Source: Dehalococcoidales bacterium (GTDB lineage: Bacteria > Chloroflexota > Dehalococcoidia > Dehalococcoidales > UBA5627). Taken from it: a stretch of DNA of 64,000 bases. Of this stretch, positions 26,525-49,171 are shown piece after piece. The position numbers and the translations under genes were made by a program. The notes beneath the pieces are model-generated. The model saw only the letters and a program-made list of their open reading frames with translations, did no database searches and had not been told where the DNA came from. Location of the stretch: contig DAOUFJ010000030.1 in the NCBI GenBank assembly GCA_034429935.1, forward strand, positions 47,261 through 111,260, in the 5' to 3' direction. Each line of letters begins with the position of its first letter. Within the stretch, counting starts at the first letter, position 1.

Positions 26525-29413
26525 TTGAAAGAAGAAAATAAATCTTTAAAAGACGAAAAGAAACAATCCGGTGAAGTAACGAGAAGAGATTTTCTCGTAG
26601 GGGCCGGGACTGTGGTCATCGGCGGAGCCGTCGGCGCCGGATTACTTTCCAGTTGTAACGGCGGAGAAACTGTAACCAAGACAGTTGAAAAGACCAAGAC
26701 AGTTGAAAAAACAACTACTATTAGTGGAGATAGTGCAGTTACGGTTACGGAAACGGTAGGTGGAGGGGATGCTGTTACAGTTACTACCACTGTCAATGGT
26801 GGTGCATCTGAACCGTGGCAAGAAGTCGAGGAAACATATCTGCGCAGAAACAGGCAGGTCGGTTGTGTCGATGTTAAAAACGGTAAAGTTATCAGGCACA
26901 GACCGTTGCACTATGATGCGCAATACCCAGACCTAACAGGCCCGATGTCATTCACAGCTCATGGAAAAACTTGGGCTGCACCTATGAAGACTCCTTTGGC
27001 CCCCCAGGCACTGGCTTTCCGTGCATTAAAGGATAATCCGACTCGTCTTCGATATCCGATGAAGAGAGTAGACTGGGAGCCGGGCGGTGACCCTGAGAAG
27101 ATAAATGCTCAAAACCGCGGTATAAGCAAATATAAGAGAATTTCATGGGATGAGGCTACAACTATAATAGCCGATGAAATAACCAGGGTAGCCGAGCAAT
27201 ATGACCCATCGGCAATAGGCCAGCTTATCCGTGTAAGCTCCTGGAGTTTTGGCTTGAATGTACAGGGCGATGGTTTCTCCATTGCACCGTTCCTGCATTA
27301 CTATTTACTTTCAAAGTACGGAAAAACTATGACGGAGCGCCATTATACAGCTGACAGCCATGTAAGCGGTATAACCGGTTTGCAATTCTACTGGGGTACT
27401 CAATCATCGGGTTATGAAGACCAGACAGGCGTATTTAATGATATAGCCAATAACGCTGAAATGATCTTGGGTTGGGGATGTAATTCATTGACACGCGCCT
27501 GGTATGAAGGTGATGGAACGAATGTAGGTGTTTTGTGGAACTGGTTTAAAGAACTTGGAATAAAGAGAGTATTCATTAATCCCGATATGAACAAGGGTGC
27601 AGGCATACATGCCGATAAATGGATACCCATATTGCCATCTACAGACGGCGCTCTGGCATTGGCTGTGGCTTATATCTGGTTTACAGAAGATACCTATAAC
27701 AAGGAGTATATTGCCGATCATGCATACGGCTTTGATAAATGGCAGGCTTATGTTATGGGTGATGAAGACGGTATTCCCAAGACACCGGAATGGGCTTCAC
27801 CCATATGCGGCATTTCAACTTGGACTATCAAGGCTTTAGCCCGTGAGTGGGCATCCAAGGTAACATCAATATCCTATGGATTTAACGGTCATGGCGGCGG
27901 TATATGTAGAGGCCCATACGGTCCTGATGCAGCAAGACTTCAAATGTACCTTTTAGGTATGCAGGGTTGGGGAGGACCAGGAGTACATAACCTTAATAGC
28001 ACAGGTAGCGGTAGCGCAGCCACACCTCCGTCAATTGGAAGTGTTGGCGGTCTGTCTCAATTATATACTGCAATGTATATGAAGTTCGGGTACGCACCTA
28101 ATGCAGCCGATACAAACAGGCAGTTCTTCCCTGAAAACCTGGTACATCTTTTACCCACCGCCTCGCCTGAAAATCCTGTAGAATGGTGGGCATTCGAAAC
28201 CCCGTTTATTAAGCGTACTTATCCTATGGAAGGTTTCTCCGAGATCCATATGGTCTGGACTGGCGGTTCACACTGGACATATTCTTGGGGAGGTGGTTTC
28301 GAGAAGCTTAAATCACTTCGTAGTCCGAAACTGGAAACTATAATAAATCAGAGCATATATATGGAAGAAGGTCCATGTTATGCGGACCTAGTATTGCCCA
28401 TTATTCAGGGATATGAGGCCGGTGAAGATATTCAGGACGCTACAGGCCCGTTCCATGTGCTTTTCCACTATAAAGAAGGCATCAAACCTTTGGGTGAGGC
28501 TATGACTGACAAGGCTGTGTTGGGTGAAGTCGCCAAGAAACTTGGGATATATGAAGAGTTTACCGGCGGAAAGACCGACGCTGAGTGGGTTAAACAGGGT
28601 TTTGACAACTCAGGCTGGACTGATTTAATCAGTTGGGATGACTTTGTAGAAAAAGGATATGTCTGCCAGCCGGTAAGCGACGCTGCAACGGCCGATCCCA
28701 AGTCGCTGGCCTTCTATCAGGATCCTGCCAAGAATCCTTTGCGTACACCGACCGGTTTGCTCGAATATGAATCAAAAGACCTCGAGGACAACTTCCCTGA
28801 TGACAAGGAAAGAAATCCTGTTGCTCACTTTGTAATAGGGGGCTCCGAGGAATCGGGCTGGAGCCATGATGAATCTCTGTCAAGCGAAAGGGCCAGAACT
28901 TATCCCCTGTTGATAGGAGTAGCTACATCTGATTTTGGGTCACATGGTTCATATTATAATATCCCGTGGTTAAGGGAAATCACCCGCACTATGTATAGCG
29001 ACGGATACTCCTATACAAAACTGTGGATGAATACTGCTGATGCCGCGGCTAGGGGTATTAAGGATGGGGATCTGGTCAAGTTCTATAACGAGAGAGGAGC
29101 CGTACTGACCTGTGCTGAAGTAAGCGAAAAGATAATGCCCGGAACATTGCAGATATCACAGGGACAAGGAGACGATTGTATTATTCGAGAGGCTCTTAAC
29201 AGAGGTGGCAATGCCAGCAGCATATGTCCGGTGGGTAATCAATCTCCTCATGTCAATGGTCAATGTACATACACCTTCCTGGTAGAGGCAGAGAAAGTTA
29301 CCGGAGACCAGATGGACGAATGGAGAGAGAGCTATCCTGAAGCATTTAACAGGGAATATGATCCGGCTTATGGGCAATCATATAGAAATATGGTTGTAGA
29401 GGGAGGTGAATAA
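26525..29413 (+). CDS. Tat-exported, lipobox-bearing molybdopterin (bis-MGD) oxidoreductase alpha subunit, pyrogallol-transhydroxylase / resorcinol-hydroxylase-like (no N-terminal FS0 Cys motif)
   Basis: 962 aa with a TTG start after AAGGAG. Twin-arginine motif (VTRRDFLVGAG) and lipobox (LLSSC). A T/V-rich insert follows (TVTKTVEKTKTVEKTTTISG..AVTVTTTV). From memory, LRYPMKRVDWEPGG, YKRISWDEATTIIADEI and FINPDMNKGAGIHADKWIPILPSTDGALALAVAYIWFTEDTYNKEYI resemble AthL. No CxxCxxxC cluster motif is present. Confidence 0.85.
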   Translation: MKEENKSLKDEKKQSGEVTRRDFLVGAGTVVIGGAVGAGLLSSCNGGETVTKTVEKTKTVEKTTTISGDSAVTVTETVGGGDAVTVTTTVNGGASEPWQEVEETYLRRNRQVGCVDVKNGKVIRHRPLHYDAQYPDLTGPMSFTAHGKTWAAPMKTPLAPQALAFRALKDNPTRLRYPMKRVDWEPGGDPEKINAQNRGISKYKRISWDEATTIIADEITRVAEQYDPSAIGQLIRVSSWSFGLNVQGDGFSIAPFLHYYLLSKYGKTMTERHYTADSHVSGITGLQFYWGTQSSGYEDQTGVFNDIANNAEMILGWGCNSLTRAWYEGDGTNVGVLWNWFKELGIKRVFINPDMNKGAGIHADKWIPILPSTDGALALAVAYIWFTEDTYNKEYIADHAYGFDKWQAYVMGDEDGIPKTPEWASPICGISTWTIKALAREWASKVTSISYGFNGHGGGICRGPYGPDAARLQMYLLGMQGWGGPGVHNLNSTGSGSAATPPSIGSVGGLSQLYTAMYMKFGYAPNAADTNRQFFPENLVHLLPTASPENPVEWWAFETPFIKRTYPMEGFSEIHMVWTGGSHWTYSWGGGFEKLKSLRSPKLETIINQSIYMEEGPCYADLVLPIIQGYEAGEDIQDATGPFHVLFHYKEGIKPLGEAMTDKAVLGEVAKKLGIYEEFTGGKTDAEWVKQGFDNSGWTDLISWDDFVEKGYVCQPVSDAATADPKSLAFYQDPAKNPLRTPTGLLEYESKDLEDNFPDDKERNPVAHFVIGGSEESGWSHDESLSSERARTYPLLIGVATSDFGSHGSYYNIPWLREITRTMYSDGYSYTKLWMNTADAAARGIKDGDLVKFYNERGAVLTCAEVSEKIMPGTLQISQGQGDDCIIREALNRGGNASSICPVGNQSPHVNGQCTYTFLVEAEKVTGDQMDEWRESYPEAFNREYDPAYGQSYRNMVVEGGE

Positions 29414-29416: not shown

Positions 29417-30229
29417 ATGAAGGTTTTTGTTTCTGATGTTGAGAAATGTCTGGGATGCTACTGCTGCCAGATATCCTGTAAAGATGAGTACTGCGGTAAT
29501 GACTGGATGCCTTATTCCAAGCCGCAACCGATGACAGGGCAATTCTGGAGGAAAGTAGAAGAACATGTTAGAGGTACTGTTCCTAAGGTAAAGGTTGCAT
29601 ATATTCCAACTGGGTGTATGCACTGTGATGACGCTCCCTGCATCAATGCATGTACTGATAATGCGATATACAAGAGAGAAGATGGAATGGTCATCATTGA
29701 TCCTCAGAAATGTACAGGACAACAGCTTTGTATAGATGCATGTCCCTATGGTGCAATCTACTTCAATAACACGCTCAACATAGCCCAGAAGTGTACCGGA
29801 TGCGCCCATTTACTGGATAGAGGCTGGCCTATAAAAGAGCCGAGATGTGTCGATTCCTGTGTTGCGGGAGCATTAGTGTTCGGAGAAGAATCCGATTTCA
29901 GTGCAGAAATAGCTCAGGCTGAAGCATTGAAGCCCAATTTCGGCGAGACGCCGGCGGTTAGGGTTCACTATCTCAACCTGCCCAAGAGGTTTATTGCAGG
30001 ACTGGTATATGATCCTGCTGTTGAGGAAGTAGTTATCGGTGCTACCTGTACCCTTACAGGTGCTGATGGTACCGTTACTGCTACTACAGACGGGTTCGGA
30101 GACTTCTGGTTCGAGGGTTTGCAGGAAGGCACCTTCTCGCTAACGATAGAGGCTGATGGCAAGACCAAGACTATAGATAATATCAGCACCGAGAAAGATG
30201 TCAACCTCGGAGAACTGGCATTATCCTGA
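29417..30229 (+). CDS. 4Fe-4S ferredoxin-type beta subunit (DmsB/BthL-like) with a C-terminal Ig/carboxypeptidase-regulatory-like beta-sandwich
   Basis: CLGCYCCQISC, CMHCDDAPC, CTGQQLCIDACP and CTGCAHL cluster motifs. The C-terminal VVIGATCTLTGADGTVTATTDGFGDFWFEGLQEGTFSLTIEADGK is CarboxypepD_reg-like, as in the transhydroxylase beta subunit. Confidence 0.88.
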   Translation: MKVFVSDVEKCLGCYCCQISCKDEYCGNDWMPYSKPQPMTGQFWRKVEEHVRGTVPKVKVAYIPTGCMHCDDAPCINACTDNAIYKREDGMVIIDPQKCTGQQLCIDACPYGAIYFNNTLNIAQKCTGCAHLLDRGWPIKEPRCVDSCVAGALVFGEESDFSAEIAQAEALKPNFGETPAVRVHYLNLPKRFIAGLVYDPAVEEVVIGATCTLTGADGTVTATTDGFGDFWFEGLQEGTFSLTIEADGKTKTIDNISTEKDVNLGELALS

Positions 30230-30378: not shown

Positions 30379-30966
30379 ATGAATAATACTGTTAGAGCAT
30401 GGTTATTTCGTGTTTTAGTTTTAGTCGCAGGAGGTTTACTGGTATTCACATGGTTTCAACCCTGGTGGAGTGCCTATGTTGAAACGTTGAGCGAAACCGC
30501 GGTTATAATTCATCCGTATGGTTTTGAATCGTTTGCTCCGCCGGAGTATGAATACTTGATGAGAGGTGCTGCCGATAAAATGCCCGGCTGGTTTACCCCT
30601 TTTATGTGGGCATATATGGGATTAGCTGTAGTAGCCTTGATATATAGCCTGTTTGCCAACAGTTCCAAAGGTATTAGTATCGGCAAATTTAGGATGTCAT
30701 TGCCCACGTTACTTGTTGCCGGTGTCGGTTTTTCTTATATCGTTGTTGTTATAGCGGCTTATCTTACCATCAACATAAATTGTCAGGAAATGTTTAATAT
30801 GCCTATAAATGGACAAGTATATATTGAGGTGTTGAATAAGGAAGCCAGCTGGGTAACCGGTTCTCTGAATAACGGTTTTTGGATGGCATGTGGCGTAGGC
30901 CCGGGATTACTTCTATTATCCTTACTTCGCAGGTTCATCGTTGGTAAATCCAAGGTTAGTGCATAG
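30379..30966 (+). CDS. integral membrane protein (about 5 TM), candidate membrane subunit of the molybdoenzyme
   Basis: 195 aa, hydrophobic helices, strong SD (AAAGGAGGAA), no family recognised. Confidence 0.55.
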   Translation: MNNTVRAWLFRVLVLVAGGLLVFTWFQPWWSAYVETLSETAVIIHPYGFESFAPPEYEYLMRGAADKMPGWFTPFMWAYMGLAVVALIYSLFANSSKGISIGKFRMSLPTLLVAGVGFSYIVVVIAAYLTININCQEMFNMPINGQVYIEVLNKEASWVTGSLNNGFWMACGVGPGLLLLSLLRRFIVGKSKVSA

Positions 30967-30971
30967 GAATT

Positions 30972-31019
30972 TTCTATCTGAGCTATATACCGAAAGGAGA
31001 TTAGCTCAGATAGAAAAAC
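30972..31019. other. perfect 15-bp inverted repeat with an 18-nt loop
   Basis: ttttctatctgagct atataccgaaaggagatt agctcagatagaaaa. Confidence 0.5.
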
Positions 31020-31139
31020 TGTTCCGGGTACCGCCTGGGGAATGATAATGCAGGTAAACATGGTGCCCAAAAAATTGGCCTCTGTCACCTGAAAAATGCG
31101 GAATAACTATTAGTATAATTGAATGCGTATCGGGTCATT

Positions 31140-31811
31140 ATGAACAAAACTGAATTAAATAGAATACTTTCAAAACTGGATCCGTATAAGATACCGTTTG
31201 ATTTAGCTGTGATTAATACTGCTGATATAATTCCACGGTACATGGGGTATTCCGATAGCTATTCCTGGGGAACGAAGGATCTGCCCGGCAACATCAAATC
31301 TATTGTCGTCTATTTATTTTTTACAGATAAAGCATTCGATTATTATATAAGGGATACTTTTACACCTCGATTAATATATTTTATGAAAAAACATTTCTCA
31401 GAGTCGACTATTTATGATGATTATAAAATTCTGAGAAAGGAAGCTGCTGCTCTTGCCGGATTAGGCAAAATAGGGCGTAATTCACTTTTATTCAGCAATA
31501 AATTTGGATTTAATTGCAAGATAGATTTATTTTTAACTGAAATAGAATTTGATCACTACGATAATGCAGGTATTGATGACTATCACCTTGAATATTGCCG
31601 GAATTGTCGGGACTGTATCAATTCTTGCCCAATGAGTTGTTCTATGGATTTCAATATAACGGATTGGGAAGAATGCGATCGATTTATATCTCCGCAAATT
31701 CCGACTCCCATGAAAATGTGCCGTAGTTGTATCACAAATTGCAGATATTCTAACGAGATTCACGCGAAAAATTTAAAAGAGTTTAAACAGAATGGACTAC
31801 TATTGTTTTAG
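31140..31811 (+). CDS. QueG/reductive-dehalogenase-superfamily-like Fe-S protein (short form)
   Basis: KEAAALAGLGKIGRNSLLFSNKFGFNCKIDLFLTEIEFD resembles the QueG core. CRNCRDCINSCP is a 4Fe-4S motif, and CRSCITNC is a second Cys motif. The track start at 31119 is TTG; ATG 31140 is likelier. Confidence 0.45.
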   Translation: MNKTELNRILSKLDPYKIPFDLAVINTADIIPRYMGYSDSYSWGTKDLPGNIKSIVVYLFFTDKAFDYYIRDTFTPRLIYFMKKHFSESTIYDDYKILRKEAAALAGLGKIGRNSLLFSNKFGFNCKIDLFLTEIEFDHYDNAGIDDYHLEYCRNCRDCINSCPMSCSMDFNITDWEECDRFISPQIPTPMKMCRSCITNCRYSNEIHAKNLKEFKQNGLLLF

Positions 31812-31880
31812 TTTTAAGCGTCATGATGGCGGGAGAAAACAAAATTACCGGGGATATTATTTTAATATAAAGGATGCCGT

Positions 31881-34013
31881 ATGAAAGTACTTCTTATTTT
31901 TCCCCCGAACTGGTCGCCTTACAGGCCATATTTAAGCTTGCCATCTCTCAGCGCTTATTTGAAAAGCAACGGCATCAATGTGATACAAAAAGACTTCAAC
32001 GTAGAAGCCTATAACATAATTATGTCCAAGGATTACCTTAAAAAGCTGGAAGTACGGTTGCAGAAACAGTTCGATGTACTGGATTCAAAAGATAACCTGA
32101 TGCCCGGTCTTGAACAGGAATATTATTGTGATCTTTTTAAAGCAAAGGCCGGTTCCGCATATATAGCCAGGAAAATAGAGTATGCTAAAGGGATTTTTAG
32201 AAGCAGAAGCAAGTTTTATGACATCAATGAGTTTGATACTGCCTTTAAAATCCTGACTCAGATGCAATCAGTTGTCTCAATAGGGAGTTTCCCTTCCGGG
32301 CAAGATTTGTTTTGGCCTCTGAATGTAAGAATCCAGAGGTCTTTCGAGGATATTAAAAAAATTACACAAAACGGGAACGAAAACCCGTTCTTAGAACTTT
32401 ATGAGAATAATTTGCTTCCATTTATACTCAAGGAAGACCCGGATATCATCGGCATTTCGATTATCGGTGAATCCCAGCTTATTCCGGCGCTTACTCTATC
32501 ACGATTGATCAAGGCGCATCATAAAAAAGCACATGTAGTGGTTGGCGGATATGCCATTTCAATGCTTTCCGATGTATTGATAAAATATGAAGAGTTTTTT
32601 ACTGATTTCTTTGATAGTGCTGTGGTTGGCGAAGGTGAACGTCCTCTATTAAAACTTGTACAGAATATATCGAACGGAAAAACATTGGACGATGTCCCGA
32701 ATCTGATTTATTCCGTTCAAGGGAAAATACGGGCAAATGAAGTTTTCCCGCCCGAGGATATGAACTTATTGCCAACTCCCTGTTTTGAGGGAATGCCGCT
32801 GGATTTATATCTAAATCCGGAACCGGTGTTACCGATACTTTCGTCAAGAGGATGCTACTGGGGCAAATGCGCTTTCTGTTCAAACAACGAATCCTGTCAT
32901 GGGAAGTACCGGAGACGGGACCCTAAAAAAGTTGTCGATGATATGCAGGAATTATCAAAAAAACACGGAGTAACTAATTTTGCCTTTTCCGATGAAGCTA
33001 TCTCTCCGGGTTCAATGAGTTCATTGTCCGATGAACTTATTAGCAGGGAGACGCATTTTAATTGCTCGACCAATGTAAGATTGGAGCGTCAATTTACAGC
33101 CGAGCTATGCAATAAGATATATAAAGCCGGTTTCAAATTGCTGTACTTCGGGCTTGAATCGGGGTGCAACCGTATCCTTGATCTCATGGACAAAGGAACT
33201 ACAAAGGAGACGGCTGTCGAAGTTTGCCGAAACGCTCATAATGCCGGCATCTGGAATCACTTATATACATTTTTGGGCTTCCCGACTGAATCCTGGGAGG
33301 AAGCACATGAAACTATCGAATTTCTGTTCTCCAATAAGAATGTAATAAACTCTTTCAGTCTCGGCAATTTCGTCCTTAACAAAGGGGCATCGTTGCTTAA
33401 CGATCCTGAGAAGTACGGGATAAAAAATTATGATGCTGGGCCGCATAAAGATTTTTGTCTTGCATATGATTACACAGTAAATTCAGGTTTAACAAGCAAT
33501 GAAGCCATGGAGTTAAGTGAAAGATCTCGCAGCAAAATAATCGAAGAATATGATACCAAAGAGATTTTTAAATTAAACTATGAGGATATTCTTTTGTACC
33601 TCTCTCATTATGGAAATAGCGCCTCTCTTTTAAACATATTGACTCCCCCCAAAAAGGAGAAAAAGTTCCCTCATGAGACAATTACAAAAAAATCGATCCC
33701 CAAAATCAAAAGTAATATTGTATTGGACAGGCTCAGGTTTAACATTTTAGATATTGAAAGTAACATTGCCGAAGACAAAAACACGCCTGTATATCCGGAG
33801 ACAAATCCGGTGCTCTTCAATCTGGTTTCCGGTCAAATATCACCTGTTAATCCTTTATTCATGGAAATTCTTACCCTGTGCGATGGCAAGAGAAATGTAC
33901 AACAAATCGCTTATGTATTATCCCAAAAATATAACGGCCAGGTTTTTAAAATAGAAGAAGACTGTATAAAATTCCTGAATATTTTGGAAAGAGAAGGATA
34001 TATTATTTTCTAG
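31881..34013 (+). CDS. B12-binding radical SAM enzyme with a C-terminal PqqD-like (RRE) domain
   Basis: 710 aa. MKVLLIFPPNWSPYRPYLSLPSLSAYLKSNGI is the class-B N-domain. SSRGCYWGKCAFC is the radical SAM cluster. The C-terminal ..VNPLFMEILTLCDGKRNVQQIAYVLSQKYNGQVFKIEEDCIKFLNILEREGYIIF shows the PqqD-family pattern. Confidence 0.82.
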   Translation: MKVLLIFPPNWSPYRPYLSLPSLSAYLKSNGINVIQKDFNVEAYNIIMSKDYLKKLEVRLQKQFDVLDSKDNLMPGLEQEYYCDLFKAKAGSAYIARKIEYAKGIFRSRSKFYDINEFDTAFKILTQMQSVVSIGSFPSGQDLFWPLNVRIQRSFEDIKKITQNGNENPFLELYENNLLPFILKEDPDIIGISIIGESQLIPALTLSRLIKAHHKKAHVVVGGYAISMLSDVLIKYEEFFTDFFDSAVVGEGERPLLKLVQNISNGKTLDDVPNLIYSVQGKIRANEVFPPEDMNLLPTPCFEGMPLDLYLNPEPVLPILSSRGCYWGKCAFCSNNESCHGKYRRRDPKKVVDDMQELSKKHGVTNFAFSDEAISPGSMSSLSDELISRETHFNCSTNVRLERQFTAELCNKIYKAGFKLLYFGLESGCNRILDLMDKGTTKETAVEVCRNAHNAGIWNHLYTFLGFPTESWEEAHETIEFLFSNKNVINSFSLGNFVLNKGASLLNDPEKYGIKNYDAGPHKDFCLAYDYTVNSGLTSNEAMELSERSRSKIIEEYDTKEIFKLNYEDILLYLSHYGNSASLLNILTPPKKEKKFPHETITKKSIPKIKSNIVLDRLRFNILDIESNIAEDKNTPVYPETNPVLFNLVSGQISPVNPLFMEILTLCDGKRNVQQIAYVLSQKYNGQVFKIEEDCIKFLNILEREGYIIF

Positions 34014-34068
34014 TGTTTAAGAGGCGGGTAAATAACCTTTGCTTAGATAATAATGTAAGAGGTTTATA

Positions 34069-35145
34069 ATGGCAGAATTTGAGTTTTCTATCCCGTATAA
34101 CAATGATATCGATACGCTAAACGAAGTCTTCCGGTTAAAAAAACTGGGTAGTAACAGTATCAGGGAGATCTATCTTTCGGGGCCTCAGGAGTTTTCCGGC
34201 TCGGGCAGGGAATGCCCCCCGATAGATATGCTTGCTTTCAAAGAGATTGTGGATAAGATACACAATGAAGGAATCCGGGTAAATTTAGTCATGAATTCGA
34301 CCTGTGAAGGAGGCGAATGGTATTCCCCCGATGTGATAAGGACAAAGATGGAATACCTGCGACTTGTACATAAAGAATACGGTGTAGAAGCGGTAACGAT
34401 GGCTAATCCTATCTATATAGAGGAGATCAGGAATCGATTCCCGGACATAGAGATATGCGCATCGGTATTGGCTGATGTGGACTGCGTGCAGAGGGCGGTC
34501 ATCCTGAAAAAGGCCGGAGCTGACGTTATAACCATCGATATGAATATCAACCGTGACATAAAAGTGCTTAAAGAGATAAAGAAAGCTACCAATGTAGAAA
34601 TAAAACTGATGGTAAACGAAGGCTGTCTCTATAAATGCCCCTACAGGAAATTCCATTTTAATTACACTTCACATAATTCAAAACAAATGTCTGTTGATAG
34701 CAGGGTATTTTTCAATAGATGCCTTCGCATAGCAGCTTCAGACCCTTCCCAGGTTTTAAAATCCAGCTGGATAAGACCTGAGGATATCTCTAAATACGGC
34801 GAAATAACCGGCTTTTTTAAGATCGTGGGCAGGGAAATGCCGGGGAGTAAAGTAATTAGATGTGTTAAGGCATATATGCAGGAAACCTGGGACGGGAACC
34901 TTCTGGATATTTTGTGCGCCAGTTTAAATAATTTCAATACGAACTACGGTATTTACCTGGATAATAAAAAGCTTGAAGAAAATGGATTCTTTGAAAAGGT
35001 TAGTTCATGCGATAGAGACTGCAACCGGTGTCACTACTGCGAGGAATTGGCTAAAAAACTAATCAGTTTTAATAACTATTCACAGGAACTTAAGAAAGAT
35101 GTGACGGACGTACAAAAATTACGGTTTAAGGGGACAACAAAGTAA
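34069..35145 (+). CDS. TIM-barrel protein with peptidase-U32-like motif order (UbiU/UbiV/RlhA/TrhP superfamily?) and a C-terminal Cys cluster
   Basis: IREIYLSGPQEFSGSGRE..., IRVNLVMNS, AVTMANPIYIEEIRNRFPDIEICASV, GADVITIDMNINRD, IKLMVNEGCLYKCPYRKFHF and a C-terminal CDRDCNRCHYC. The assignment is by pattern only. Confidence 0.4.
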   Translation: MAEFEFSIPYNNDIDTLNEVFRLKKLGSNSIREIYLSGPQEFSGSGRECPPIDMLAFKEIVDKIHNEGIRVNLVMNSTCEGGEWYSPDVIRTKMEYLRLVHKEYGVEAVTMANPIYIEEIRNRFPDIEICASVLADVDCVQRAVILKKAGADVITIDMNINRDIKVLKEIKKATNVEIKLMVNEGCLYKCPYRKFHFNYTSHNSKQMSVDSRVFFNRCLRIAASDPSQVLKSSWIRPEDISKYGEITGFFKIVGREMPGSKVIRCVKAYMQETWDGNLLDILCASLNNFNTNYGIYLDNKKLEENGFFEKVSSCDRDCNRCHYCEELAKKLISFNNYSQELKKDVTDVQKLRFKGTTK

Positions 35146-35187
35146 ACATCCGATATCAAAATAAAATAGAGTATTTGTAAGAAGATC

Positions 35188-35568
35188 ATGAAAATAGACG
35201 ATCAAAACAATAAAAATATAAAAAAGTCCAAGCTATCCATAAACCGAAGAACATTTTTGGGGTTGGGAGGGAAAATAGCGATTGTAATTGCCTTCGGTGG
35301 TTTAATTCGATTATTGGAGCGGGATAATAAATTCGAACGGCCGCTGACAGCTTTACCGGAGGATGAATTTCTGGCCCTTTGTAGCAGATGCCAGAAATGT
35401 ATAGCAGCCTGTCCCTATAAAGCGACGACTCCTGTTCTTCTTAGTGAAAGCGTGACCAGCGCCGGTACACCTAAACTGGTCAGCTCGTGTTTATATGGCG
35501 ATAAGAGTTATATGGGATGCCCCGGCTACTGTGCTATGGAATGTCCTACGGGCGCTTTGCGGCTATAA
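35188..35568 (+). CDS. Tat-signal 2x[4Fe-4S] ferredoxin (NapG/MauM-like)
   Basis: NRRTFLGLGG twin-arginine signal, CSRCQKCIAACP and C..C...CAMECPTGAL. Confidence 0.68.
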   Translation: MKIDDQNNKNIKKSKLSINRRTFLGLGGKIAIVIAFGGLIRLLERDNKFERPLTALPEDEFLALCSRCQKCIAACPYKATTPVLLSESVTSAGTPKLVSSCLYGDKSYMGCPGYCAMECPTGALRL

Positions 35569-35580
35569 AAGGATTGTATT

Positions 35581-36426
35581 GTGACTAAGATAAGAATAAT
35601 TCGTATCATAACGGCTTTACTATTTATCGGGTTAATTGTCTGGGGTGTTTTCAGTAATTTCAGGTACGGCGGCCTGTGCTCTTTTGAAACCGCCTGGCAT
35701 ATCGGTACACTGGAACTCGGACTTGCCTGCCCCCTGGGTTTTTTACAGAGGTGGCTGGCCGGCGGCATTCTTTTCCCCCAATGGTTCCCTGCAGTATTAG
35801 CTATACTCTTGATTATCATACTGGGTAAAATCTTCTGCGACTGGTTTTGTCCCACTGTTCTTATGAAACGGTCGTTTAAAGGTAAAGGAATCTTTGAATC
35901 CAAATACAGTATATCTCCTGCAAAGATGAAGGGAGAATCGTATTCCCGCTATGCTATTCTGGGCGGGGTGTTGCTATCGACGTTTTTATTCGGATTTCCC
36001 GTTTTTTGCTATGTTTGCCCTATCGGACTCTTTTTTGCTTTTATATTTGCCGTAATAAGCCTTTTTACAGGACAGGTGTTGATCTGGCAATTGATATTAT
36101 TTCCTGTTTTACTGATATTCGAACTATACATTTTAAAACGATGGTGCCGTTCAATCTGCCCACTGGGAGCTTTAATGGGCATTTTCGGCAGTCTCAATCG
36201 TTTCTTCCGGCCGACTGTTAAAAAAGACAAGTGCCTTACTTCACAGGGTATAAATTGCCAGGTATGCCGGAAAAATTGTTCTGAAGGGATCGACCTGGTC
36301 GATAGCAAGGGTAATTTTGCTCAAAGAGAGTGTACCAAGTGCCTGGAGTGCTACGAGAAATGTCCGGCAAAAGCCATAGAAATACGGTTGTTTACTCCTT
36401 TCCGTCGAAAGAAAAATAAAGAGTAA
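35581..36426 (+). CDS. NapH/MauN/NosR-type polytopic membrane 4Fe-4S protein
   Basis: CPLGFLQRW, CDWFCP, CYVCPIG and RSICPLGALMG (CX3CP repeats), plus C-terminal CQVCRKNC and CTKCLECYEKCP. Confidence 0.75.
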   Translation: MTKIRIIRIITALLFIGLIVWGVFSNFRYGGLCSFETAWHIGTLELGLACPLGFLQRWLAGGILFPQWFPAVLAILLIIILGKIFCDWFCPTVLMKRSFKGKGIFESKYSISPAKMKGESYSRYAILGGVLLSTFLFGFPVFCYVCPIGLFFAFIFAVISLFTGQVLIWQLILFPVLLIFELYILKRWCRSICPLGALMGIFGSLNRFFRPTVKKDKCLTSQGINCQVCRKNCSEGIDLVDSKGNFAQRECTKCLECYEKCPAKAIEIRLFTPFRRKKNKE

Positions 36427-36485
36427 CTATATAACAGAACCGGGCATCATAAATAAAAAGAACCATTGGTTTCGAAGATAATAGA

Positions 36486-37031
36486 ATGTGTATTTACCGG
36501 AATAAGTCATTAAATCCCGTTGCCTTTATTACCCTGGCAATCGTTATCGCTGTTTCATCCCTTGTTGTAACGGAAAGAGTTACACGTATAGCGATCGAAG
36601 CGCAGCAAGATACGGAAACACTTTCGTTATTGCAGCAAATATTCACTGATACGGATTATTATTCTTACAATGCCGATACGGGGATCTATATTGTATACGA
36701 TAACAGCCGTAATGAAATAGGTTATGCATTTTATGGCTCGGACAGGGGGTTTAGAAGTGATATTACTGTTCTTATCGGGCTTGAAGACAAGAAGACGATA
36801 AAAGGGATTGTTGTGGTTCGACAAAGTGATGACTATCAATACTGGCAAAGGCTGGTCTATGGTAATTTCTTCGAACAGTTTAAAGGATTGAAGATAGAGA
36901 ACTGTTTTATTACGGGATATGGCTTGGGGTATGGGCATGTGGATGCGGCATCGGGAGCGACTATAAGTTCATGGGGTGTAACGGATGCAGTGAGAAAGGC
37001 GGCTTTGGAAAAGGTTAAATTGATGGAGTAG
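36486..37031 (+). CDS. membrane-anchored FMN-binding (FMN_bind) domain protein (NosR/RnfG/RdhC N-domain-like)
   Basis: N-terminal TM helix, and C-terminal VDAASGATISSWGVTDAVRKA (the SGAT-S flavinylation motif). Confidence 0.75.
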   Translation: MCIYRNKSLNPVAFITLAIVIAVSSLVVTERVTRIAIEAQQDTETLSLLQQIFTDTDYYSYNADTGIYIVYDNSRNEIGYAFYGSDRGFRSDITVLIGLEDKKTIKGIVVVRQSDDYQYWQRLVYGNFFEQFKGLKIENCFITGYGLGYGHVDAASGATISSWGVTDAVRKAALEKVKLME

Positions 37032-37418
37032 GACTTTAGCCTTTTGTGTGCATTACAATGGGCATCACAGTGTAGGACATGTATCTACTTACCATTGAAT
37101 GTAGCAGGAAGGCTTCATTCTATTAACTGTCGTTTGAAATCTATGCCACCACTCTATTCCAGAATTCCAATTTGTCTATCGCCTCTATTTGTATCAAATG
37201 GTTGGAGTTTATTATTCCCATGGTTGTTGTATGTGTAATTGCTGTTATCCCATGTATCTAGTTTTATCCTGCTTATGAATTACATCTAAGTACTGAAAGC
37301 CCGATGCCTTTGCTTGTAACATTCAGACCTTCGAAGTCCTGTGTCTTTGGCTACATCAACGAGAAGTACATCCCTGGCGATTGTCTTTTTAAAATTGTGT
37401 TTTGTTTTTATAGCCTCT

Positions 37419-38012
<594 letters not shown>

Positions 38013-38014
38013 TT

Positions 38015-38200
38015 TTATTTGTTATACTCCTTTTTTGATTTACGTCCTCCTCCTAATTTTCTTTGTCTACAATAATTTAGTTCCAATACTACCCAGTCTC
38101 TAGCCAATTTAACTCCTTTAATTTCACCTTTGGCTAATAACCGCCTTACTTGACTGGTGTCTAATCCTAGCTTGATAGATGCTTCTTTTACACTATACAT
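38015..38200 (-). CDS. excisionase-family helix-turn-helix protein (Xis-like)
   Basis: MYSVKEASIKLGLDTSQVRRLLAKGEIKGVKLARDWVV is the excisionase/MerR-type HTH_17 pattern. 61 aa. Confidence 0.7.
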   Translation of the reverse strand: MYSVKEASIKLGLDTSQVRRLLAKGEIKGVKLARDWVVLELNYCRQRKLGGGRKSKKEYNK

Positions 38201-38206
38201 AGTTAT

Positions 38207-38230
38207 ATTATACCTGTATACAGGTATAAT
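38207..38230. promoter_or_regulatory. 24-bp perfect palindrome (ATTATACCTGTA|TACAGGTATAAT) in the divergent promoter region of element B
   Basis: It lies 7 nt upstream of the xis-like start and contains TATAAT (38225-38230) facing the 38307 gene. Confidence 0.5.
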
Positions 38231-38306
38231 TTCAAGGCAAAAATGAAGAAAAATTTATTGCCATGTATATTGTGTATCTGATGTATCAAATAGTATTATT
38301 ATCACT

Positions 38307-39011
38307 ATGGAAGAAAGCGAATATAAGAGAACAAAAGCTATATTAGATACGGCTAAGAAAAGAGACGTTCCTGACTTTGAGCATACATTAGATATGCGTA
38401 ATGAATGTATTAGATTATTAATGATAAATTTGGTTCAATATCGACCTTTCATTGAGAGGATGAATCAATTAAGACTGAAATATGAGAAATGTGATGAAAT
38501 AAAGGAAAGACCATTAGCTTCAATAGAATCTCTGAGTCAATCTTTCCAAACTATGAAAAAGCAGGCACAGGAATATCTTAAAGATATTTCATCAATTGTT
38601 AGTGATTATGGTCTTAATCCTGATTGGGCAAGAGAACTAATACATGAAGGTATTAATGATTTTGATTCATTAGCTACTGGATTAGATTGTAAAACCATAG
38701 ATGAAGAATTTAGTTTTAATATAACTTGGAATACAGAAAAATTGTCTAGTAAAAAAGAAGCCTTTGCACAAGTAAAAGAGCAATTTAACGAACAATGGGA
38801 TTTATATGAGCAATATTTAAAAAGTATTGGATTTAACAAAAGAAGAAAAAAGGGAGCATTAGGAAATCATGTTATATGGACTTTTAAGAAAGTATGTTTG
38901 CATATGGCATGGCATGAGTTAGCTCAAGACGAAGGTTTATTAAACGCAGAATCATTAAGGAAACCAGTTTATCAAATTATTAAATTATTAGGGCTTAATT
39001 CTACTAATTAA
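38307..39011 (+). CDS. hypothetical protein (element B)
   Basis: 234 aa, helical, no family recognised. Confidence 0.55.
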   Translation: MEESEYKRTKAILDTAKKRDVPDFEHTLDMRNECIRLLMINLVQYRPFIERMNQLRLKYEKCDEIKERPLASIESLSQSFQTMKKQAQEYLKDISSIVSDYGLNPDWARELIHEGINDFDSLATGLDCKTIDEEFSFNITWNTEKLSSKKEAFAQVKEQFNEQWDLYEQYLKSIGFNKRRKKGALGNHVIWTFKKVCLHMAWHELAQDEGLLNAESLRKPVYQIIKLLGLNSTN

Positions 39012-39144
39012 AGAGATAGATGCCTAAGAATAAAGTTAAACTTCAGCATCATATCTAATTAGAGAATATAATTATCTCCTATAGCGTCAAGGATTAAAAA
39101 TCATATCTATACATTCGGAGAAATATTAAGGCATATAAGTTAAT

Positions 39145-39267
39145 TTATTTGCGTTTTTTGGGCTCAGTAAACTTCGGCAATTCTACGCCATCGCCTGATC
39201 TATCAGGTTTGCCACTCTTAGTTATTCTAGGCGGATTACCTTGTTTTTGTGTCGGAGTTCCTTTCAT
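39145..39267 (-). CDS. small basic ORF (40 aa) with a strong SD, not in the ORF track
   Basis: Own translation: MKGTPTQKQGNPPRITKSGKPDRSGDGVELPKFTEPKKRK. AAGGAGGA lies 5 nt upstream of ATG 39267. Confidence 0.45.
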   Translation of the reverse strand: MKGTPTQKQGNPPRITKSGKPDRSGDGVELPKFTEPKKRK

Positions 39268-39409
39268 TTTGTCCTCCTTGTTAAAAAACAAATCCATTGT
39301 AGCATAAATTCAAAACGATATACTATCAAAGGTGGGTAATTTTTTATTTATCTCTTTTTCCCAATATTACTACTGAAAAAAGTATGTTAGCCTTTTATTA
39401 AGGTGAAAA

Positions 39410-40375
39410 ATGGAAAAGAAGAAAACTGTATATGAAATACATTCTGGTAAAAGTGCTATTGAATCAGATATTCCAGAAGTAGACTATATTATCGAACAAA
39501 AGCTAAGACATCAAGCCAAGATTGCAGTAATAGGAAAATGGAAAACTGCAAAATCATTTTTAACTATACAGCTAGGTATGGCTATTGCTTCGGGTAATGA
39601 TTTTCTAGGATTTAAAACCACACAAGCCAATGTTCTGTATGTCAATTTTGAAATCTCAGAAGAGATGTTTGCTCAAAGAATACAGGATATGAATCATGCT
39701 CTTAATTATAATCTTGATAATTTTAATTATTTAACCATTACTGACCTTAGCTTGGATTTGCATACACAGGAACTTGAGGAAATTCTGACACAATGTATTA
39801 CTGAGGGATTTAATGTTGAAGTTTTAATTATTGACCCTAGATGGAAAGCGGTTAAAAGAGACAGTAATCAGGATGAAGTAATTAACGCCTTTTGTACACA
39901 CCTTGACCAGATTATTCAGAAGTACAAATTGGCTGTCATTGTTGTTCATCATGAGGGTGCTAGTACATCCTCAGATAAAGCTGGTAAAGGTAGCACGGTC
40001 TTTGATGCTTGGCTTGATGGTTGGTTTAAGATTAAACCACAGTCTTTAGACAATAAAGTAAGAGAAATAGATGTGTGGTCTAGAGATAGTGAAAGAGAAA
40101 CCATTATAGCTACCTTTAAATATCCAATTCATGAAGTGTCATCAAACATGGTAGCAGAAAGAAAGGCAAAAACGGATAAAGCTAAATTAAGCATACTTGA
40201 ATTCATTAATTCGGGAAGTAAACCGGAAAAGGAGGTGAGATTCTATGTACTAGGTAAGGGACATACTGACTATGCTTACTGGAGAGCGAGGTCAGAATTA
40301 TTAAAAGAAGGAATAATTGAAGTGGAAAAAGCTTCAGGTCCAGGAAATAGAAAAATCATTTCATACAAGAAATAA
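39410..40375 (+). CDS. RecA-fold ATPase, AAA_25/RepA-like (replication/helicase-loader type found on integrative elements)
   Basis: IAVIGKWKTAKSFLTIQLGMAIASGNDFLGFKT (Walker A variant), VLIIDP (Walker B), VIVVHHEGAS..KGSTVFDAW. Confidence 0.65.
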   Translation: MEKKKTVYEIHSGKSAIESDIPEVDYIIEQKLRHQAKIAVIGKWKTAKSFLTIQLGMAIASGNDFLGFKTTQANVLYVNFEISEEMFAQRIQDMNHALNYNLDNFNYLTITDLSLDLHTQELEEILTQCITEGFNVEVLIIDPRWKAVKRDSNQDEVINAFCTHLDQIIQKYKLAVIVVHHEGASTSSDKAGKGSTVFDAWLDGWFKIKPQSLDNKVREIDVWSRDSERETIIATFKYPIHEVSSNMVAERKAKTDKAKLSILEFINSGSKPEKEVRFYVLGKGHTDYAYWRARSELLKEGIIEVEKASGPGNRKIISYKK

Positions 40376-40395
40376 ACTAGAAAAGGAGATAATAA

Positions 40396-40701
40396 ATGAG
40401 TTTTGCATCTTATTTAAAGCGGGGGAAAAATTATCCTACACTTACATGTGATACTTGTGGACAACCAATTCAAGATGTTACCTCAGCTATAATAACATTT
40501 AAAGATTTGAGCGGATGTCCAATAAGCCATGCGACTGGCATATATCACAAGGTTACATGTGACCCTGGTCATGAAGTTCAGCCTTATTGCGATGAACTTC
40601 AAAGCTACTTGTGCCAATTAGTTTTTAACTTAAGGCTAGGAAGAGTAGTAAATAAAAATAGTAAGCAAATAATCATTGATATTCCACAAGATGAACTATA
40701 A
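40396..40701 (+). CDS. hypothetical protein (element B)
   Basis: 101 aa, SD AAGGAG upstream, CDTCGQ motif. Confidence 0.5.
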   Translation: MSFASYLKRGKNYPTLTCDTCGQPIQDVTSAIITFKDLSGCPISHATGIYHKVTCDPGHEVQPYCDELQSYLCQLVFNLRLGRVVNKNSKQIIIDIPQDEL

Positions 40702-40995
40702 ATTATAAGGGTTTTTAAAATAGAAACTGCAGTTTCTTAAAACTATTTGATTGAATATTATATATTAAGTAGATATTTCGGGTCTCTAGCATTTTTGTCA
40801 AATGTTCAAATATTTGATTATTTGATTATTTTTTATAAGAGTCCGTTAAAAAGAATTCTAGCTTTGACTTATTAACATTTTAGAATTATAACAGCACAAG
40901 ATATATACATTGTATCTGTTATTGATTTAGGTTTATATTTAAGCGGCTAGTTAGCTATTTGACAATATCAATAGCAGTCTATTAGGGTAAAAATC

Positions 40996-41304
40996 TTAAT
41001 ACCATCCTTGTCCGAATAGTGATTTAAAAACACCTGTAATAGCGGTTATCCCACCACCTATTATGAGAATCCACCCTAAAACAGGCATTGTGACTTGATA
41101 ATAAGCGCCATCCCTCAATTCAGTATAACCTTCAAATCCCGTTATATAGCCGACATATATAATAAATCCACTAATTACTAATGCAAATAAAAACCCTAAT
41201 AACCGCCATAAACCACCTTTTTCAGCACAACTCTCCGCGACAAATTTAACCAAGGTAAAAAGAAATATAAAGGGGAGTAAAATTAACCAACCAAAAAATC
41301 TCAT
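40996..41304 (-). CDS. small membrane protein (3 TM)
   Basis: 102 aa, hydrophobic. Confidence 0.5.
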   Translation of the reverse strand: MRFFGWLILLPFIFLFTLVKFVAESCAEKGGLWRLLGFLFALVISGFIIYVGYITGFEGYTELRDGAYYQVTMPVLGWILIIGGGITAITGVFKSLFGQGWY

Positions 41305-41516
41305 AATGACGTCACTCCTTAAATATCTATTTCCCTTTATTATGGGTTATGACAACTCCCTCCCAACCAGTTAAAATAGTCTAAAAAGAAGTCTTTTTGG
41401 GTTTTGTTTAACTATGCTAACCCTTTTGCCTATAGCTAGGGGTAGTTCGGTTATATAGGTTAATAAAAGTGTATATATAAATATCACAATCACGGCTCTC
41501 ATAAACGGATTTTATT

Positions 41517-41984
41517 CTAACTTACACGCCAGGTCCATTTTTTTTCAATGATTCCAGTCTTGCATTTCGGGCAGGTTTTATCAACCATCTCTATCACTGT
41601 TTTAACATTTTCTGATTTGCACTTGGGGCATATTCTTTGATCTCTCCTTTTATTAGTTCCATATGAGTGAAACATGCTGTATTTACAATAATAATATCGC
41701 ACAGATCTGTCATTGTTATCTTCAGCCCCTTCATCGTCGCCTATGTCTAATTCGAACTGGTGCAAACAGTTCAGGCAGACACAATCCGAATTGTAGCCTG
41801 TTCGATCTAAAATCATTTGTTTAGTCGCTTTTTTGCCAAGGATTTTACGAATTGTTCTGCCCTCATCGGGATGTGGGCAAACGATTCTTTTTCCGTTATC
41901 ATCAATTACATAAAGATATCCGCCCCAACCTTGCGGCAGGGAGAAATGACAGTTATTGCATATATAATCGTTTATATCTGGCAT
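41517..41984 (-). CDS. hypothetical multi-zinc-ribbon protein
   Basis: CNNC..CPH, CLNC and CPKC..CPKC pairs. Confidence 0.5.
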   Translation of the reverse strand: MPDINDYICNNCHFSLPQGWGGYLYVIDDNGKRIVCPHPDEGRTIRKILGKKATKQMILDRTGYNSDCVCLNCLHQFELDIGDDEGAEDNNDRSVRYYYCKYSMFHSYGTNKRRDQRICPKCKSENVKTVIEMVDKTCPKCKTGIIEKKWTWRVS

Positions 41985-42238
41985 ATTCTAATATCCTTAT
42001 TTAACCTACCATTGATTACAATATAAATTCTAATACTGGGCTACTGCCACTATTAACTATTCTTTTTAATATTGGTTATCACCATAATTGTTGTATTTAG
42101 GACAGAGTATTTCCTCATTACCACAAGCTTTTGTCCGCTGACCTGAACCCAATGTAATAGGCTGTTAATCGACTTTTTTAATTTTACAGCATCAATGACT
42201 ATGACAGGGTTGCAGGTAACCAGACTGCGATAGCTTTC

Positions 42239-42883: not shown

Positions 42884-42964
42884 TTGTCAATCCTATATAG
42901 TGTCAATTATCATCTAAATGTGCCTAATTACTTTCCGCATTTTAACATTATATCTAAATAAGGA

Positions 42965-44177: not shown

Positions 44178-44222
<45 letters not shown>

Positions 44223-49159: not shown

Positions 49160-49171
49160 AAAGGAGAAAAT

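Follow-up and report, generated by a model that had tools for sequence, protein, structure and literature searches.

The stretch of DNA analyzed here, referred to as the window, comprises 64,000 nucleotides of contig DAOUFJ010000030.1 (positions 47,261 to 111,260) from a Dehalococcoidales bacterium, and carries six co-directional genes on the plus strand at 31119-37031, separated by gaps of 69, 55, 42, 12 and 59 nt in the analysis of open reading frames (ORFs). An initial annotation had placed six co-directional genes with short gaps downstream of a molybdoenzyme operon, and all of these ORFs are present on the plus strand. The start coordinate given at that time (31042) is not a gene boundary; it lies inside the 152-nt spacer that follows the gene for the membrane protein memC. 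The six genes take up the distal half of an operon of approximately 11 kb, which begins at approximately 25.9 kb with a lipoprotein gene, continues with the genes for the molybdoenzyme subunits MoA and FeSB and for memC in its proximal half, and ends with the six accessory genes. The operon contains the following features:

25863-26453, plus strand: lipoprotein-like protein with lipobox LVGC, a T/V-rich linker and a C-terminal beta-rich domain.
26525-29413, plus strand: MoA, catalytic subunit of a bis-molybdopterin guanine dinucleotide molybdoenzyme (Pfam Molybdopterin, Molydop_binding and AhtL-like_1st).
29417-30229, plus strand: FeSB, iron-sulfur subunit (Pfam Fer4_11, 92 bits) with a C-terminal Ig-like domain (CarboxypepD_reg, 38 bits).
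30379-30966, plus strand: memC, membrane protein with several hydrophobic segments, as judged by eye.
30970-31017, plus strand: intercistronic hairpin with perfect 16-bp arms and no T-run, directly 3' of the memC stop codon (repeat search).
31119-31811, plus strand: putative minimal protein of the QueG/RdhA fold, 230 aa, with a TTG start (an alternative ATG at 31140 corresponds to the 223-aa call of the Joint Genome Institute, JGI, in locus L008).
31881-34013, plus strand: class-B (cobalamin-type) radical S-adenosylmethionine (SAM) enzyme, 710 aa, with a C-terminal PqqD-type recognition element (RRE) as known from peptides that are synthesized by ribosomes and modified after translation (RiPPs); rSAM-RRE below.
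34069-35145, plus strand: U32-family TIM-barrel Fe-S protein, 358 aa (Pfam PF01136).
35188-35568, plus strand: short NapG/MauM-like ferredoxin, 126 aa, exported by twin-arginine translocation (Tat; motif NRRTFLGLGG).
35581-36426, plus strand: NapH-like polytopic membrane Fe-S protein, 281 aa (Pfam Fer4_5, 37.1 bits).
36486-37031, plus strand: membrane-anchored FMN_bind (RnfG-like) protein, 181 aa (Pfam FMN_bind, 48.7 bits).

These genes are considered a single operon because of the short gaps, the lack of internal terminators and the presence of a conserved hairpin only at the boundary of the structural and accessory genes. Neither terminator-like sites between the operon genes on the plus strand nor promoter signals separating the two halves were found above shuffle expectation. 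The hairpin region (30955-31125) folds at -53.4 kcal/mol (z = -4.9), and its position is kept, with differing sequences, in the related loci L169 (8282-8331), L170 (8483-8524), L171 (9175-9216) and L016 (9302-9337). The hairpin may represent an mRNA-stability or attenuation boundary, and would separate structural genes that are needed abundantly from accessory genes that are needed less abundantly. As the whole arrangement is also present as a 99%-identical copy in a JGI metagenome (L008), it is not an assembly artefact.

The rSAM-RRE protein matches the Pfam families Radical_SAM (PF04055, 73.4 bits) and B12-binding (PF02310, 33.3 bits; gathering threshold, GA, 32.1). Residues 644-708 match PqqD (PF05402) at 31.9 bits, above the GA of 23.4, which upholds the original identification of a C-terminal PqqD domain or RRE. 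In the AlphaFold2 (AF2) model (mean predicted local distance difference test score, pLDDT, 87.6) residues 613-705 form a beta-strand plus three-helix domain (strands 613-618, 642-647 and 653-655; helices 658-666, 673-684 and 688-705), and the best match of the C-terminal region in the PDB is PqqD (5sxy, E 0.03). Based on the profile and the model, the domain is predicted to be a canonical PqqD-type RRE. The top Foldseek matches of the model are OxsB, TsrM, MgmA and CysS, all B12 enzymes, and the best curated family in NCBIfam is TIGR03975, a RiPP C-methyltransferase family, for which the 129.6 bits obtained do not reach the cutoff of 281.85. The radical SAM cluster motif reads C325-X4-C330-X2-C333 (C-YWGK-C-AF-C; 32853-32879), not the canonical CX3CX2C, and is invariant in 15 of 15 aligned sequences. 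These full-length family members align through the RRE, and many homologues have a precomputed match to PF05402.

Dehalococcoidia have many homologues of rSAM-RRE: a genome carries several paralogues, one per operon. Many strains share the Dehalococcoides mccartyi paralogue with at least 90% identity (its cluster counts 28 sequences), and NCBI names it "PqqD family peptide modification chaperone" or "B12-binding domain-containing radical SAM protein". In D. mccartyi CP019999 (L001 7729-12133) this paralogue, 45% identical to the window protein, forms an apparent unit with marR and a major facilitator superfamily (MFS) transporter gene between rdhA/rdhB pairs. A short metagenome contig (L089 4-2767) carries two tandem rSAM-RRE paralogues with 49% and 66% identity to the window protein. 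Relatives that lack PqqD (approximately 35% identity; L018-L088, L093-L168) have unrelated contexts: they abound in Anaerolineae and Caldilineae, there located behind genes for Opp-type peptide ABC transporters, and are also common in Nitrospinota, often as tandem paralogues.

The 230-aa protein encoded by the first accessory gene has no Pfam match, and neither an RR motif nor PF13486 was found in it. In NCBIfam it scores far below the cutoffs of QueG (31.1 bits, cutoff 200) and of the reductive dehalogenase family TIGR02486 (30.1 bits, cutoff 160). Comparison with the PDB retrieved QueG (5d6s, E 3.5e-6) and PceA (8q4h, E 4.6e-6), and the AF2 model (pLDDT 62.7) is closest in Foldseek to QueG (TM 0.49, E 1e-3), followed by PceA and MMACHC. 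An AGLGxIGRN...FGFNCKID core and the motifs CxxCxxCxxxCP and C...CxxCxxxC, which together hold eight cluster cysteines, are invariant in the family. These weak but consistent similarities suggest a nitroreductase-like, putatively cobalamin-binding core with two [4Fe-4S] motifs, and thus a minimal member of the QueG/RdhA superfamily. The likeness to QueG and RdhA claimed at the outset is consistent across profile, PDB and model, at scores that are weak and miss the equivalog cutoffs. The family is rare: a word-index search gave 10 homologues, and of 1.84 billion representatives 36 matched at E <= 1e-30. One homologue (41% identity; L173 10001-10774) has surroundings unlike those in the window, namely a nonribosomal peptide synthetase (NRPS) cluster that also holds a glycosyltransferase gene and three radical SAM genes.

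The 358-aa protein exceeds the gathering score of PF01136 (26.0 against 22.4 bits), in agreement with its earlier assignment to U32, and among solved structures its nearest relative is the U32 core 5d88 (E 4e-13); no NCBIfam family matched. Within the family C79, C130, C186, C190 and C218 are invariant and C314, C318, C321 and C324 near-invariant. We found at least 725 homologues, with several paralogues per contig. In six of the six loci examined the U32-like gene lies directly downstream of an exported molybdenum or tungsten (Mo/W) enzyme, and these enzymes belong to three unrelated families, namely the dimethyl sulfoxide reductase (DMSOR), aldehyde oxidoreductase (AOR) and xanthine dehydrogenase (XDH) types:

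DMSOR-type: window and L169.
AOR-type: L007 and L175.
XDH-type: L172 and L174.

In L172 the XDH-type operon is followed by genes for a U32 protein, a QueG-like protein (frameshifted), a HemN-like class-C radical SAM protein, a NapH-like protein and a DsbD_2 protein.

No export signal was seen by eye in the N-termini of the QueG-like, rSAM-RRE and U32-like proteins (the cytoplasmic trio). None of them reaches the cutoff of a curated family in the Pfam and NCBIfam searches, single Pfam domains aside, and our literature search, which included Dehalococcoidia, found no description of the combination.

The products of the last three genes had been described as a split NosR/RdhC-like set, and their domains confirm a Tat ferredoxin, a CX3CP membrane protein and an FMN_bind protein. 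In NCBIfam the ferredoxin scores 45.6 bits against NapG (cutoff 269) and 39.5 bits against MauM/NapG, both below cutoff. The membrane protein contains two CX3CP motifs (CDWFCP and CRSICP) and a C-terminal two-cluster ferredoxin domain, and remains below the cutoffs of NapH (74.9 bits, cutoff 234), napH_ (72.9 bits) and NosR (39.9 bits, cutoff 1000). The FMN_bind protein has the flavinylation motif DAASGATISS and, as judged by eye, an N-terminal hydrophobic segment; it matches the RnfG type with 54.7 bits, below cutoff. The genes napA and napB are absent, and no ApbE gene is present among the annotated ORFs of the window. For NapH-like membrane Fe-S proteins that occur with a separate, ApbE-flavinylated FMN_bind protein, electron transfer across the membrane to or from extracytosolic oxidoreductases has been proposed, and NosR and PceC are the characterized fused examples of this class (PMC8238504). 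We assign the NapG/NapH/FMN_bind proteins to this published class of flavinylated systems with fairly high confidence. The initial view that the six genes match no described pathway therefore does not extend to the last three, which fit a known class (PMC8238504), and holds for the trio, for which we found neither a curated family nor a paper. NapG-like homologues adjoin NapH-like genes in L169 and L010/L171, and a homologue of the FMN_bind protein (45% identity) is encoded directly upstream of rSAM-RRE in L091. As proteins of the cytochrome-b-like membrane family DUF4405 take the place of NapG/NapH in sister loci, the electron module appears to be interchangeable.

The enzyme encoded in the proximal half is a homologue of pyrogallol hydroxytransferase over the full length of its large subunit (MoA against 4v4c_A, 315 bits) and over residues 4-267 of FeSB (4v4c_B, 188 bits). 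Relative to the large subunit AthL, Asp174-Ser175 is kept in MoA, and His144 and Arg153 are replaced by Trp and Ser. MoA carries a Tat motif (TRRDFL), a lipobox (LLSSC) and a T/V-rich linker. The third protein, memC, has no Pfam or NCBIfam family and is presumed to be a membrane anchor. It is invariably located after MoA-FeSB, as in L169, L170, L171/L010 and L016, with its C-terminal part at the contig start of L091 and its start at the end of L009. On these grounds MoA-FeSB-memC is predicted to be a Tat-exported, lipid-anchored and outward-facing relative of the pyrogallol-phloroglucinol transhydroxylase. A near-identical Tat-lipoprotein leader is present on exported subunits of all three Mo/W enzyme types (MoA itself, and the Fe-S subunit in the AOR- and XDH-type enzymes). 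It follows the pattern M.E.KK..GE[VI]SRR[ED]FL...LLAAC and a T/V-rich linker on molybdopterin, Fer4 and Fer2 subunits, and its conservation reaches unusually far upstream of the twin-arginine motif. The leader was found at the following positions:

Window: 26525-26700.
L007: from 5706.
L175: from 127 and from 5084.
L172: from 2941.
L174: from 5693.

We examined approximately 20 informative loci around rSAM-RRE and U32-like homologues. In six distinct loci (window/L008, L169, L170, L171/L010, L016 and L091) rSAM-RRE directly follows MoA-FeSB-memC, and in L009 it lies 5.7 kb from these genes. L169 is the true orthologous operon (identities of 72% for MoA, 70% for rSAM, 79% for U32 and 76% for NapH); a DUF4405 gene is additional there, and a QueG-like gene is missing. 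In the non-orthologous loci identity to the window is 44-46% for MoA, 61-68% for rSAM and 65-74% for FeSB. This higher conservation of rSAM than of MoA is the pattern expected of a conserved accessory protein and a variable catalytic subunit. The remainder of the gene content is a mosaic: L010/L171 keep only rSAM and NapG/NapH, and L170 keeps rSAM and DUF4405. Counted by distinct rSAM locus, NapG with NapH-like genes occur in three (window/L008, L169, L010/L171), DUF4405 in three, U32-like in three, FMN_bind in two, the beta-rich repeat protein fam7 in three (L010/L171, L006, L091) and FmdE in one (L010/L171). Among loci with exported Mo/W enzymes, the mini QueG-like gene is confined to the window and, together with U32, to the XDH-type locus L172. 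Co-conservation of the six genes, as first envisaged, thus holds for rSAM-RRE, which is constant beside MoA-FeSB-memC, and not for a fixed six-gene unit. Elsewhere, rSAM-RRE (60% identity) follows a Tat-Fer4/AOR (tungsten-type) operon plus U32 in L007, paralogues with 43-48% identity lie among the reductive dehalogenase genes of Dehalococcoides and Dehalogenimonas (L001, L004, L013, L017), and in L090 and L015 the gene stands alone. Few close relatives were found among the matches listed in the metagenome scan.

Directly 3' of the operon, the window continues with low-GC mobile DNA (37419-51535, GC 0.30-0.37), and the operon is situated at the edge of an integrated element:

37419-51535: low-GC stretch with an HTH fragment gene and genes for an AAA_25 protein and an SMC-like ATPase.
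43300-44118, minus strand: tyrosine integrase within the low-GC stretch.
50227-51378, plus strand: tyrosine integrase within the low-GC stretch.
51461-51535: tRNA-Met at the end of the low-GC stretch.

The proximity of the operon to a low-GC stretch with integrase genes and a tRNA-Met, together with the variation in gene content around rSAM among loci, could mean that an unrelated cassette was placed beside the molybdoenzyme operon by mobile DNA and that the juxtaposition is incidental. We consider this extremely improbable, given that the same adjacency recurs in six distinct loci with diverged sequences, that the hairpin boundary is conserved, and that no terminator or promoter signal separates the two halves.

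The presence of an RRE raised the question of a peptide substrate. The initial annotation had noted that no precursor gene is visible, and a comparison of small ORFs across 13 rSAM-RRE paralogues likewise found no conserved one: among ORFs of 20-110 aa within 4 kb, all conserved blastp clusters were shadows of larger genes, and no ORF of at least 15 aa was common to the regions within approximately 300 nt on either side. No leader peptidase or exporter gene is present among the operon genes. In Rfam, only the tRNA reached the gathering threshold; matches in the operon were at chance level and no riboswitch was found. A small ORF (45-77 aa; TTIGI..TK..L..N.APGQ.YDGFI.QLIDLWE) does occur directly upstream of exported Mo/W operons of all three families:

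Small upstream ORF: L009 17393-17617; L016 4423-4656; L172 2619-2819; L174 5280-5477; L175 4830-4970.

It is absent from the window, where two-component regulators are found instead, and was ruled out as a precursor, as it is ribbon-helix-helix-like and also occurs in operons without rSAM. Two further ideas were considered. A search with a hidden Markov model found no memC-like anchor, as a possible common target, in the AOR- and XDH-type operons, and the speculation that the RRE reads the conserved Tat-lipoprotein leader could not be supported, because the same leader occurs in operons without rSAM.

These searches bear on the possibility that the trio makes a cryptic RiPP or other peptide product from a precursor whose gene lies elsewhere or escapes detection through shortness or divergence, with the U32-like protein as a tailoring enzyme or leader peptidase. 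Such a product would agree with the canonical RRE and with a RiPP C-methyltransferase as the closest curated family, and peptide or natural-product contexts do occur among relatives: the D. mccartyi paralogue follows an MFS transporter gene, the PqqD-less relatives follow peptide ABC transporter genes, and a QueG-like homologue lies within the NRPS/radical SAM cluster of L173. It is nevertheless improbable, as no conserved small ORF (of at least 15-20 aa) lies within 300-4000 nt of the 13 paralogues, the intergenic gaps of the operon are too short for a precursor, and the context consists consistently of respiratory enzymes and not of natural-product genes. Moreover, the TIGR03975 score is below cutoff, and the U32-like protein is Cys-rich and Fe-S-like. 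The missing small ORF and the lack of an operon peptidase or exporter argue against a free RiPP; the PqqD match above threshold, the strand/helix model and the nearest families (RiPP C-methyltransferases and MgmA) argue for peptide or protein chemistry.

A small molecule could also be the substrate. MenK and MqnK methylate menaquinone and UbiU/UbiV hydroxylate ubiquinone precursors, and in parallel the trio might modify a small redox molecule of the adjacent electron chain (a quinone, pterin or corrinoid). Class-C radical SAM enzymes include menaquinone methyltransferases, and the radical SAM protein encoded beside U32, QueG-like and NapH-like proteins in L172 is of this HemN-like class. Homologues of NapH are quinol dehydrogenases, the U32-like genes lie beside three unrelated families of pterin-cofactor enzymes, and MMACHC, a B12-processing enzyme, is among the structures that the QueG-like model resembles. 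In addition, characterized U32 oxidases hydroxylate ubiquinone precursors without O2 (PMC11574389). Set against this, the family-wide conserved PqqD/RRE argues for a peptide ligand, several paralogues per genome with one per operon are hard to square with a single shared cofactor, and no quinone or pterin biosynthesis genes were found in the window, which makes tailoring of such a cofactor unlikely.

Alternatively, the trio could be catabolic and act, after uptake, on the small molecule that the exported enzyme consumes or produces, such as phenolics or heterocycles of sediments. The AthL-, AOR- and XDH-type families each include enzymes of anaerobic aromatic or heterocycle degradation, and all three enzyme types found here would fit this. 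Enzymes of the QueG/RdhA group, like U32 oxidases, act on aromatic or heterocyclic rings, and the differences in substrate-binding residues between MoA and the pyrogallol enzyme suggest diverse substrates. A catabolic role is quite unlikely all the same in view of the RRE domain, of the higher conservation of rSAM (61-70%) than of the substrate-defining catalytic subunit (about 45%), and of the lack of transporter or downstream pathway genes in the operon.

We tentatively favor a reading in which the trio serves, in the cytoplasm and without O2, as a system-specific maturation module for a polypeptide of the exported complex and is coupled to a dedicated electron conduit. It is suggested by the combination of a conserved accessory protein with variable catalytic subunits, by the presence of one paralogue per operon, by the position of the accessory genes and by the hairpin boundary. 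In other molybdoenzyme operons the equivalent position is taken by accessory genes of the TorD, NarJ and PaoD type. Of the functions proposed initially, synteny gives the strongest support to maturation of and electron supply to the exported molybdoenzyme; the proposed modification of a peptide or protein, which might be a subunit, agrees with this function and would be its most likely chemistry.

From the genes, domains and recurrent synteny observed, we infer a substrate, a chemistry and a direction of electron flow for such a maturation module. The RRE of rSAM-RRE would hold an unfolded stretch of polypeptide, in which an unactivated carbon would be modified, most likely by C-methylation. 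The U32-type Fe-S protein may add or handle an O2-independent hydroxylation or oxidation, and the mini QueG-fold protein may be a B12/Fe-S reductase that acts on the same target or keeps the corrinoid reduced. Most likely the target would belong to the exported oxidoreductase complex and receive its modification ahead of Tat export. In the conduit, electrons from the cytoplasm or membrane would pass via the Fe-S clusters of the NapH-like protein; the ferredoxin and flavoprotein outside the cytoplasm would receive them and hand them on to FeSB and MoA.

Several observations weigh against this maturation role. We know of no modified residues in any enzyme of the DMSOR family or of the transhydroxylase type. 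To our knowledge, RRE domains bind the leader peptides of small precursors and not enzyme subunits or Tat leaders. As rSAM-RRE also occurs without a nearby Mo enzyme (in L090 and L015, and in D. mccartyi L001 behind genes for MarR and an MFS transporter), its target cannot always be MoA, FeSB or memC. Conversely, U32-like genes lie beside Mo/W enzymes without rSAM (L174, L175), so that the three cytoplasmic enzymes need not act together. The QueG-like assignment is based on weak scores and a model of low pLDDT (62.7), and the sample of approximately 20 informative loci is small.

A bolder variant, which we regard as very improbable, is that the trio builds a peptide- or protein-derived redox cofactor without oxygen, as an anaerobic counterpart of pyrroloquinoline quinone (PQQ), cysteine tryptophylquinone (CTQ) and mycofactocin. 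C-C or C-methyl chemistry would be provided by rSAM-RRE, O2-independent hydroxylation by the U32-like protein and reduction by the B12/Fe-S protein. The cofactor would reside in or travel with the exported complex and, in Dehalococcoidia, connect the membrane with Mo, W and corrinoid reductases that face outward. At least the Dehalococcoides lineage of this group is quinone-independent. Such a cofactor would explain an RRE without a RiPP cluster, the presence of the genes beside unrelated exported redox enzymes (AthL-type and AOR-type, and RdhA for the distant paralogues) and their retention in the streamlined genome of D. mccartyi.

Dehalococcoidia are among the most abundant bacteria of anoxic sediments and aquifers. 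Their many exported pyrogallol hydroxytransferase-like, AOR- and XDH-type enzymes have so far been read solely as catabolic markers (PMC4959651, PMC3971608). Should these enzymes require a dedicated B12 rSAM/RRE maturase together with a U32 oxidase in order to work, then expressing the whole group heterologously and assigning its functions would depend on both. The maturation reading, if true, would imply either that molybdoenzymes undergo a novel post-translational modification or that a novel cofactor is made anaerobically, and would extend RRE domains beyond RiPP natural products. Because an rSAM-RRE paralogue is kept in cultivated D. mccartyi (e.g., CAI83640.1 of strain CBDB1), these predictions can be tested experimentally in an organism relevant to bioremediation.

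The operon is preceded by regulatory genes:

22665-23882, plus strand: PAS histidine kinase (Pfam HisKA, HATPase_c and PAS_9).
23879-24556, plus strand: DNA-binding response regulator (receiver domain in the translation).
24815-25225 and 25257-25721, plus strand: two single-domain response regulators (receiver domains in the translations).

Both single-domain response regulators recur in L169, the orthologous operon, with identities of 69% and 59%. The lipoprotein-like protein at 25863-26453 has no Pfam or NCBIfam match; its C-terminal domain is weakly similar (E 0.0024) to the fam7 repeat, and fam7 adjoins rSAM in L010/L171, L006 and L091. No homologues were found for the ORF that follows the FMN_bind gene (37044-37238). 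Unrelated to the operon, a Memo-AMMECR1 fusion gene adjoins a radical SAM gene on the minus strand (53920-56273), which we take to be the common AmmeMemoRadiSam trio in fused form. Large ORFs (352-769 aa) without a Pfam family at E <= 1e-5 are located at 15320-16915, 47069-48415, 49172-50230 and 60418-62727.

In comparison with known systems, the electron module adds a member to a known class, and the transhydroxylase-like enzyme is an exported variant of one already known. What has not been described is the cytoplasmic trio, with its systematic occurrence beside exported Mo/W enzymes. Both subunits of the transhydroxylase-like enzyme are homologous over their full length to AthL/BthL of Pelobacter acidigallici (4v4c). 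The small subunits have an Ig-like C-terminal domain in common, and the large subunits an Asp-Ser pair at the Mo site, with Ser as ligand to Mo. The Pelobacter transhydroxylase is cytoplasmic and redox-neutral. MoA differs from it in the replacement of the pocket residues His144 and Arg153, in a Tat motif and lipobox that predict export and lipid anchoring, and in the membrane subunit and electron-transfer genes encoded downstream. Genome papers on Dehalococcoidia merely mention "pyrogallol hydroxytransferase" genes (PMC4959651, PMC3971608).

The conduit resembles the NapH-like flavinylated systems in its PF12801 CX3CP protein with cytoplasmic Fe-S clusters, its SGAT-type FMN_bind protein and the exported oxidoreductase nearby. 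A separate FMN_bind gene is the minority arrangement among these systems (539 of 2465 clusters), and both the added short Tat ferredoxin and the transhydroxylase-type partner enzyme, which is not listed there, set the present system apart (PMC8238504). In NosR and PceC, by contrast with the separate genes found here, the FMN_bind and NapH domains are fused.

With UbiU/UbiV, RlhA and TrhP the U32-like protein has in common the TIM-barrel core and invariant cysteines that suggest Fe-S binding. It differs in an extra C-terminal CX3CX2CX2C motif, in the position of its genes after exported Mo/W enzymes, and in the spacing C130...C186-X3-C190...C218 as opposed to the CX6CX15CX3C of U32 oxidases (PMC11574389). 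The 230-aa protein resembles QueG, RdhA and CblC/MMACHC in its core motif, its two ferredoxin-type cluster motifs and its nearest structural neighbors. It ends after the second cluster motif, however, and is without the tRNA-binding C-terminal domain of QueG and without the Tat signal and N-terminal half of RdhA.

The rSAM-RRE protein has the N-terminal cobalamin-type Rossmann domain and radical SAM barrel of the TIGR03975/PoyC-type RiPP C-methyltransferases and of MgmA (9ccb). Unlike these, it scores far below the family cutoffs, has a CX4CX2C motif and a C-terminally fused RRE, lacks a precursor and is syntenic with an exported Mo/W enzyme. The combination of a PqqD-type RRE with radical SAM chemistry in a redox-enzyme context is shared with PqqD/PqqE and MftB/MftC, which initiate the formation of peptide-derived redox cofactors, are SPASM-type instead of B12-dependent, are not fused in one chain, and have the precursors PqqA and MftA, of which no counterpart was found here. 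The radical SAM maturases anSME (for sulfatases) and QhpD (for quinohemoprotein amine dehydrogenase) are encoded beside exported enzymes, and offer an analogy in that one cytoplasmic radical SAM gene accompanies each exported-enzyme operon and paralogues follow individual operons; they differ in being SPASM-type, without B12 or RRE, and in having known target residues. A precedent for a B12 radical SAM enzyme that modifies a large enzyme is provided by MgmA, the glutamine methylase of methyl-coenzyme M reductase.

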